NCBI RefSeq assembly: GCF_035084215.1
Contig: NC_090363.1
Span: forward strand, 4,960,001 to 5,024,000
Length of the DNA: 64,000 bases
Source of the DNA: Heptranchias perlo
Taxonomy: Eukaryota
Reading direction: 5' to 3'
Below the pieces are notes generated by a model. That model ran no database searches, was not told where the DNA came from, and worked only from the letters and a program-made list of their open reading frames with translations. The translations under genes and the position numbers were made by a program. This document shows, in pieces, positions 50,499 through 51,045 of this stretch; within the stretch, counting starts at the first letter, position 1, and each line of letters opens with the position of its first letter.

Positions 50499-50535
50499 CT
50501 CTTTGATAAGTTGGTTTGTGGCTCTGAAAAGAGCC
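50499..50535 (-). terminator. Orphan histone-type 3' stem-loop with histone downstream element (HDE)
   Basis: Minus strand AAC-GGCTCTTTTCAGAGCC-ACAAA (stem-loop 50520-50535), then AAAGAG (50499-50504) about 15 nt downstream. No recognisable histone ORF directly upstream. Confidence 0.85.
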
Positions 50536-50570
50536 GTTATTGTATTATATTGTGTTGTAGATATACATGC

Positions 50571-50571
50571 G

Positions 50572-50604
<33 letters not shown>
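50571..50604. repeat. (CA)n(TA)n microsatellite
   Basis: Direct reading. Confidence 0.9.
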
Positions 50605-51045
50605 TATAATATAAAAAACATTCAGGGGTGTGTTTCGCCTCCTGTCAGGTACTATTCTGTTGCTCAGAGCATGGGACATATTTAACTTCTTGGGGATATT
50701 TAAGTCGTGAAGGGACCTTCGATGAGAACCAGAGGGCTCTCCAATTTCTGATTTCAACATTTGACTCAATCTTCAAGTCACACCTGGTCCGCCCAGACTC
50801 CATGTGGTTGAGTTCACATTTGGTAAGATTTCTTGGGGAAATTAGCCGGGGAAATGGCATCAATCACACAGATGCTCTTGAGAATAAGTGAGAAGTTTGG
50901 CATTAAATCAAGTCACATTTTGCCCATTTAAGATTTTAGCTTTTATATCGACCCCCAGGTGAGGAGTCAGGGTCCCACAGTACAACACTTACAATAACTT
51001 ATAAGCCCAAAATAATGTATAGCCCTGGCTTAAGACATTGTGAGT

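Follow-up and report, generated by a model that had tools for sequence, protein, structure and literature searches.

A histone-type stem-loop with no histone reading frame in Heptranchias perlo is probably the surviving 3' end of a lost linker-histone H1-variant gene

The window analysed here is a stretch of 64,000 nucleotides of Heptranchias perlo contig NC_090363.1 (C42; the window is C42:4960001-5024000), and coordinates without a prefix are positions in it. The window contains the left edge of a divergent histone-gene cluster in which 31 histone-type stem-loops lie within 364 kb. Its minus strand carries an Arg-rich H1 variant, an H2B variant (its cluster-mate goes by the name histone H2B type 1-A-like, Heptranchias perlo) and, 526 nt downstream of the H2B stem-loop, a second stem-loop with no histone ORF ahead of it (Table 1). 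This orphan stem-loop reads AAC-GGCTCTTTTCAGAGCC-ACAAA, its 16-mer running from 50535 to 50520, and is followed by an HDE, AAAGAG, 15 nt downstream of the stem; a minus-strand TATAAAA (50947-50941) lies about 410 nt upstream. A sequence-only reading had placed the stem-loop, the HDE and the minus-strand TATAAAA correctly, and its estimate of about 525 nt between the two stem-loops agrees with our measurement. Four tandem single-ORF genes (3776-26444), which we take from their translation to belong to the HSP70 family, stand some 25 kb outside the edge of this cluster.

The region C42:5010-5280 kb is rich in divergent H1, with 14 of the 31 stem-loops following H1-like sequence as judged by tblastn and one further H1 gene frameshifted, and several of the divergent H1 genes in this region have Arg-rich tails. 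One intact H1 variant gene in the window (60788-61417) has a stem-loop at 60748-60763 on the minus strand whose loop, TCCT, lacks the conserved U at position 3, and an AATAAA occurs about 75 nt downstream of that stem-loop; this gene may have moved to poly(A), replication-independent expression.

Table 1. Features of the orphan stem-loop region and of the loci compared with it
Feature	Position	Strand	Support
Arg-rich H1 variant, with which the duplicated block begins; copy at C42:5207.8-5208.9 kb	53134..53829	-	
Intact H2B-variant ORF, 135 aa, upstream neighbour of the remnant	51093..51500	-	PF00125 E=5e-22
H2B stem-loop, 31 nt past the stop; purine-rich non-AAAGAG element downstream, like other H2B genes	51046..51061	-	
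Spacer piece, inverted; lies upstream of H1 at the intact paralogue (C42:5216037-5215770, opposite orientation)	50750..50975	-	
3' end of an old dispersed repeat; TATAAAA (50947-50941) on the repeat's A-rich tail	50931..50975	-	
Junction zone, weak non-significant likeness to H1 tail	50672..50749	-	
Final 8 codons of the lost H1 gene, with its stop (CSEQQNST, stop)	50645..50671	-	alignment to H1 paralogues
H1 3' UTR, 109 nt, lengthened by a TA/TG microsatellite (~50612-50556); 43 and 40 nt in the intact paralogues	50536..50644	-	
Histone stem-loop, 16/16 identical to both H1 paralogues	50520..50535	-	
ACAAA, HDE AAAGAG (50504-50499) and downstream flank common to the two H1 paralogues	50460..50519	-	
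Far flank matching DNA behind the H1 paralogue, C42:5217778-5217817 (82.5%; sole non-self match in 364 kb)	49809..49848	-	
Consensus stem-loops behind seven broken histone genes (H2A, H4, H1, H3)	C42:5052637, 5210792, 5269175; L053:7854, L056:7992, L058:3941, L060:3643		

The orphan stem-loop has a 6-bp stem whose second pair is G-C and a 4-nt loop whose third base is U, and it folds at -9.3 kcal/mol. Its score against the Rfam family Histone3 (RF00032) was 33.9 bits (E=5.7e-8), narrowly missing the gathering score of 34, and it does not appear in the Rfam scan at gathering level. The stem-loop pattern matched 1298 times across the genome and 25 times with a reversed control, which argues that the orphan did not arise by chance. 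A purine-rich HDE is present at the expected distance of about 15 nt; the stem-loop itself lies 109 nt from the relic stop described below and 557 nt from the H2B stop, in both cases beyond the 25-60 nt that normally separate a histone stop codon from its stem-loop. Side matches from the Rfam search (mir-297 on the microsatellite, snR66, and U7 on the hairpin's plus strand) were far under their gathering scores and were discarded. For the U7 snRNA gene of the host, the Rfam search gave no hits and a motif search gave 5, as against 14 in the control.

Protein-level searches found no histone at the orphan site. The 29-aa ORF reported from 50903 is present, while two longer entries given as 72 and 74 aa each encode 71 aa from their ATG (50860-50645 and 50760-50545); the former terminates at the inherited H1 stop. 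None of these three small ORFs matched a histone family in Pfam, including PF00538, and a DUF2678 match on ORF 50760-50545 was set aside as under the cut-off (17 vs 27.8 bits). Among 5.8 billion proteins ORF 50860-50645 had no homologue of 39-125 aa. In a 15-billion protein collection none of four candidate peptides of the orphan region was on record, as against three of three neighbouring histones. A tblastn search with 35 cluster histones as queries gave no match within 250 nt of the orphan stem-loop. The statement that the site holds no recognisable histone ORF is thus true at the protein level, by Pfam, whereas homology to a histone gene is clear at the DNA level.

A whole-genome DNA search with 50480-50960 returned the query itself and the 3' ends of two H1-variant genes, and nothing else. 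Both are intact (C42:5058.9 kb, 220 aa, and C42:5217.4 kb, 219 aa; PF00538 E=4e-17), and the H1 protein encoded about 200 kb away is identical to a database entry, 'histone H1-like' (Heptranchias perlo). The homology begins at 50671 with TGCTC, crosses the UTR, where it is broken by the TA/TG microsatellite, and extends beyond the HDE. The relic C-terminus, CSEQQNST before the stop, corresponds to CSEQRGST and CSEHDSA in the intact paralogues, and the CSE ending of this H1 variant also occurs in relatives from basking and white shark. With the stem-loop and the microsatellite excluded, the two H1 paralogues scored 163 and 106 against the upstream flank (next best 59) and 108 and 87 against the downstream flank (next best 69); on both sides they ranked first and second among the 48 other stem-loop loci surveyed, and the flanks matched none of the remaining 46. 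The homology to live paralogues is therefore specific and goes beyond the shared motif. An 80-nt window at 50680-50601 gave z=14.9 and 8.0 against the two paralogues and z<1 against three other H1 genes.

Upstream of this segment the likeness to H1 ends. Windows of 80 nt across 51040-50681 had no significant collinear match to the promoter or ORF of either H1 paralogue, and the H1-tail alignment upstream of 50672 was not significant (its score was reached by 20/150 and 37/150 shuffles). A KYPQEV/KHPEKV likeness just upstream of the relic codons falls in this non-significant stretch and was not relied on. The locus has neither a globular H15 domain in an open frame nor a promoter and start codon of its own, and the coding capacity is lost, with 8 of about 220 codons left (~4% of the ORF). 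On the strength of these alignments, the 3' part of the orphan derives from the end of a linker-histone (H1) gene of the shark.

Its position tells the same story. The window block, consisting of the Arg-rich H1, the H2B and the orphan, is an inverted duplicate of C42:5207.8-5217.9 kb, about 200 kb away, and in that distant block the intact 219-aa H1 occupies the orphan's place. Collinear identities between the blocks are 97.8% over 1067 nt for the Arg-rich H1, 87.7% over 706 nt for the H2B with its promoter, 78.8% over 80 nt for the orphan end against the H1 end, and 82.5% over 40 nt for the far flank; the score of a longer far-flank alignment was reached by 1/100 shuffles. From the H2B stem-loop to the next stem-loop is 2159 nt in the distant block, where the latter belongs to H1, as against 526 nt in the window. 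The orphan thus sits at a paralogous position with native flanks and is not retroposed. Some 380 nt are missing from the paralogous flank, including a short repeat-like piece (50330-50381) matched by many contigs of two other organisms. Of the last 130 codons, 2 distinguish the two H2B copies (window 51093-51500 and the distant block), with the spacers about 25% diverged, and the intact H1 copies (L002 and L003) are identical over most of the ORF and divergent in the last codons and UTR. The similarity of the H2B and H1 copies (window 51093-51500 and 53057-54123 vs C42:5207.8-5215.3 kb) bears signs of gene conversion.

The place of the H1 promoter and ORF is taken by an inverted piece of spacer. 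Compared in reverse with the paralogue's H2B-H1 spacer, the orphan body scored 352, where the shuffle maximum was 205 (0/300), whereas in the forward orientation the score was reached by 249/300 shuffles; 161 of 213 ungapped columns are identical. An alternative, longer local alignment extending the inverted piece to 50618 was rejected, as its windows below 50720 are at background against the spacer and strong against H1. At its upstream end the inverted piece carries the 3' terminus of an old dispersed repeat, weakly recognised from the window piece alone (E=0.022) and strongly in the paralogous copy (E=6.5e-15). Copies of this repeat (L027-L036) have about 150 nt upstream in common and end in an A/T-rich tail; a 26-letter pattern drawn from it matched 10 times across the genome and never in controls, and a repeat profile gave 14 hits in 364 kb and none in reversed sequence. 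Spacer homology persists beyond the end of the repeat (score 209, 0/500 shuffles), so the two copies appear to hold the same insertion, and both intact H1 genes have the same repeat copy upstream in antisense (score 325, 0/300 shuffles), which indicates that the orientation in the window is the derived one.

The apparent TATA box aligns with the repeat's A-rich tail and is likely nothing else than that tail. A TATAAAA is expected by chance in a 510-nt strand of the window with P ~0.10, and TATAWAW with P ~0.31. The 98 nt upstream of it contain no CCAAT and one CpG, and the orphan body has 42% GC and a CpG o/e of 0.31, compared with 59-61% and 0.74-0.80 in the histone ORFs.

The sequence-only reading had considered a decayed histone gene and objected that a perfectly preserved signal would be odd for a pseudogene. 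We surveyed 49 stem-loops, 31 in 364 kb of C42 and 18 from ten 10-kb stretches of C2 and C3 that were chosen for containing stem-loops. At least 7 of the 48 others stand intact behind truncated or frameshifted histone genes (11 of the 49 loci were inspected individually), and one of these seven keeps AAAGAG besides its consensus stem-loop, so the objection does not hold here. Because the pattern detects intact signals only, this count shows that such loci occur and not their share, and some of the frameshifts among the seven could be assembly errors. One of the seven, an H4 remnant, has 2 stops and 8/66 residues changed and retains 16/16 stem-loop bases; its 5' part is replaced by LINE-like reverse transcriptase sequence.

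In a three-way alignment with the intact paralogues, all 28 signal columns are unchanged in the orphan. Over 76 non-signal columns the orphan has 7 private changes and the paralogues have 6 and 12, with 3 columns differing in all three. For a signal that had always been neutral, 0/28 changed signal columns beside 10/76 changed neighbouring columns on the orphan branch has P=0.019 (Fisher p=0.059); an intact signal with 5% drift since the loss has P=0.24. The intact signal would therefore mean either that the H1 gene was lost late relative to the three-copy split or that the signal is still in use, and an orphan branch no longer than those of the live genes fits a late loss.

Taken together, these data suggest, with a probability that we put at roughly 85%, that the stem-loop and HDE survive as the 3' end of a third H1-variant copy, from which the promoter and every codon but the last 8 have gone, likely by inversion-deletion, and that they are likely no longer the end of a gene of their own. 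The homology of tail, stop, UTR, stem-loop, HDE and flank, the position in the duplicated block, and the inverted spacer standing in for promoter and ORF can be read directly from the alignments. The steps between would be as follows. An H1-H2B-H1 block was presumably duplicated, and the third H1 copy would long have been a live gene with selection on its 3' signal. A late inversion-deletion would then have removed the H1 promoter and about 210 codons, and the same event would have flipped some 230 nt of upstream spacer, so that the repeat's A-rich tail now lies in sense and is fused to the H1 tail. Growth of the UTR microsatellite would have brought the distance from stop to stem-loop to 109 nt. 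The remnant would lack a promoter of its own; any RNA that arrives there would be H2B read-through, and SLBP/U7 cutting at the site a possible by-product. Of the three options offered by the sequence-only reading, the decayed histone gene is thus borne out by the DNA-level H1 alignment of tail, UTR, signal and flanks. That clear alignment to a histone gene also disposes of the other two, a non-histone RNA and a second H2B processing site, as accounts of the element's origin.

A second reading accepts the same origin and differs on present use: the H2B variant could have kept the orphaned signal as an additional SLBP/U7 site, distal to its own, and read-through past a weak proximal site would give a long-UTR H2B mRNA with two stem-loops. 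The terminal one would stand 557 nt from the stop, far beyond the usual 25-60 nt, and for that reason this mRNA would likely be spared the translation-coupled decay that occurs as S phase ends. We regard both the retained site and this transcript as unlikely. The two sites share a strand over their 526 nt with no AATAAA or ATTAAA between them, all 28 signal columns are intact, and the literal AAAGAG is at the distal and not the proximal site. That the H2B stem-loop lacks AAAGAG, as had been pointed out, is correct and not unusual: AAAGAG accompanies 8 of the 49 surveyed stem-loops and none of the 12 H2B genes, so the proximal site appears normal for H2B here. Moreover, the near-identical H2B paralogue has the same type of HDE, and after its own stem-loop none follows for 2.2 kb, until the gene behind it. 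PMC4896052 describes processing that takes place once the polymerase is beyond the HDE, but the same paper has histone cleavage normally at the first signal and termination tightly coupled to it (in Drosophila and in mammalian data that it cites), so a second stem-loop should receive little RNA.

Contigs bear on both sides of this question. They were placed on 49700-51080 only, from 4 of 21 listed runs, two of which are guessed to be RNA (one sample, one study). Contigs of these two presumed-RNA runs cover 50637-50905 at depth 3.5-5.7, between the two stem-loops, as the distal-site account would have it, but others of like depth (2.8-9.1) lie downstream at 49805-50104, and they flank the orphan stem-loop with none across it; the microsatellite breaks contigs, and RNA end, strand and level are not readable from them. 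The sole AATAAA/ATTAAA between the H2B stem-loop and 49700 is at 49707 on the minus strand; the low-depth contigs that flank the orphan stem-loop all lie upstream of this site, and rare polyadenylated H2B read-through could be their source. If a distal H2B site were indeed used and selected, it would be a new, pseudogene-born route to replication-independent histone mRNA without poly(A).

The headline of the sequence-only reading, a TATA-driven orphan gene with histone 3' processing, would require a new gene at the junction, producing a noncoding RNA or the 71-aa ORF 50860-50645, and we consider it very improbable. The TATAAAA is suitably placed, the ORF closes at the inherited stop, and the upper ends of two low-depth contigs (50883 and 50905; one sample, one study) lie just below the TATA. 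However, TATA and stem-loop belong to two rearranged pieces that have been joined: the former aligns with the repeat's A-rich tail, is within reach of chance (P ~0.1-0.3) and has the promoter-poor upstream sequence noted above, and the ORF is stitched from inverted spacer DNA, with no Pfam match, no homologue and none of the four peptides on record. We found no non-histone promoter and body conserved or expressed as a unit, the body being inverted spacer and repeat and the 3' part H1, and contigs of two other organisms gave the orphan body no cover at 80% likeness. According to PMC4604434, SLBP targets in HeLa cells are histone mRNAs, pseudogenes are not expressed, and CLIP gave a single, weakly covered non-histone interval. 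It is more doubtful still that the animal has a whole H1 gene here and that its deletion is an artefact of assembly: in favour are the three-copy family inside a segmental duplication and the sample's DNA runs, which contain 0.84 of the words of 50480-51520, but an independent 247-nt contig (50637-50883) spans the spacer-to-H1-tail junction with 0 differences, a second (50693-50905) spans the end of the inverted piece with no difference, and the pieces are 20-25% diverged from their paralogues and so are not collapsed copies.

The orphan stem-loop is thus likely an ordinary dead-gene remnant, one further case of histone gene turnover that in itself matters little. It also carries a warning, since motif scans in histone clusters yield 'orphan' stem-loops that only a DNA-level comparison with paralogues explains, and the locus offers a natural test of how the polymerase behaves at two successive processing signals.

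In literature that left most subscription journals outside its coverage, we found nothing on this locus, on orphan stem-loops in sharks or on tandem histone stem-loops, and no long histone mRNA form ending at a second stem-loop. That one histone gene can have both short and long 3' UTRs is known from H2AX, the nearest precedent, which according to 10.1101/720235 has dual 3' ends at a stem-loop or a downstream poly(A) site; unlike the transcript considered above, its long form ends in poly(A) and not at a second stem-loop. The orphan shares with the 3' ends described by RF00032 (SLBP, U7 snRNP, CPSF73) the stem, loop, G-C pair, U, ACAAA and AAAGAG at +15. It differs from replication-dependent histone 3' ends in having no histone ORF ahead of it and in its distances to the two stops (109 and 557 nt), compared with 22-67 nt in human histone genes (10.1101/720235) and with the 25-60 nt that 10.64898/2026.10.14.759114 calls critical for regulated stability.

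Its closest relatives are the shark H1-variant subfamily, represented in Heptranchias by XP_067829852.1 and XP_067829795.1 and by full-length relatives in Cetorhinus, Pristiophorus, Carcharodon and Stegostoma. The remnant has in common with this subfamily the CSE motif, the stop position, the UTR core, the stem-loop, the HDE flank and the upstream repeat copy, and lacks the promoter, start codon, H15 domain and basic tail. Human core-histone pseudogenes number 17 according to 10.1101/720235, which also gives the HGNC bar for a pseudogene as 50% identity over 50% of the parent ORF; at about 4% of the ORF the H1 piece falls under this bar, and 'remnant' is the right term. Like the unprocessed pseudogenes of the human histone clusters, it is a dead copy within a cluster, at a live paralogue's position and with native flanks; unlike them, it keeps 8 of about 220 codons and would have been shaped by inversion-deletion rather than by point decay.
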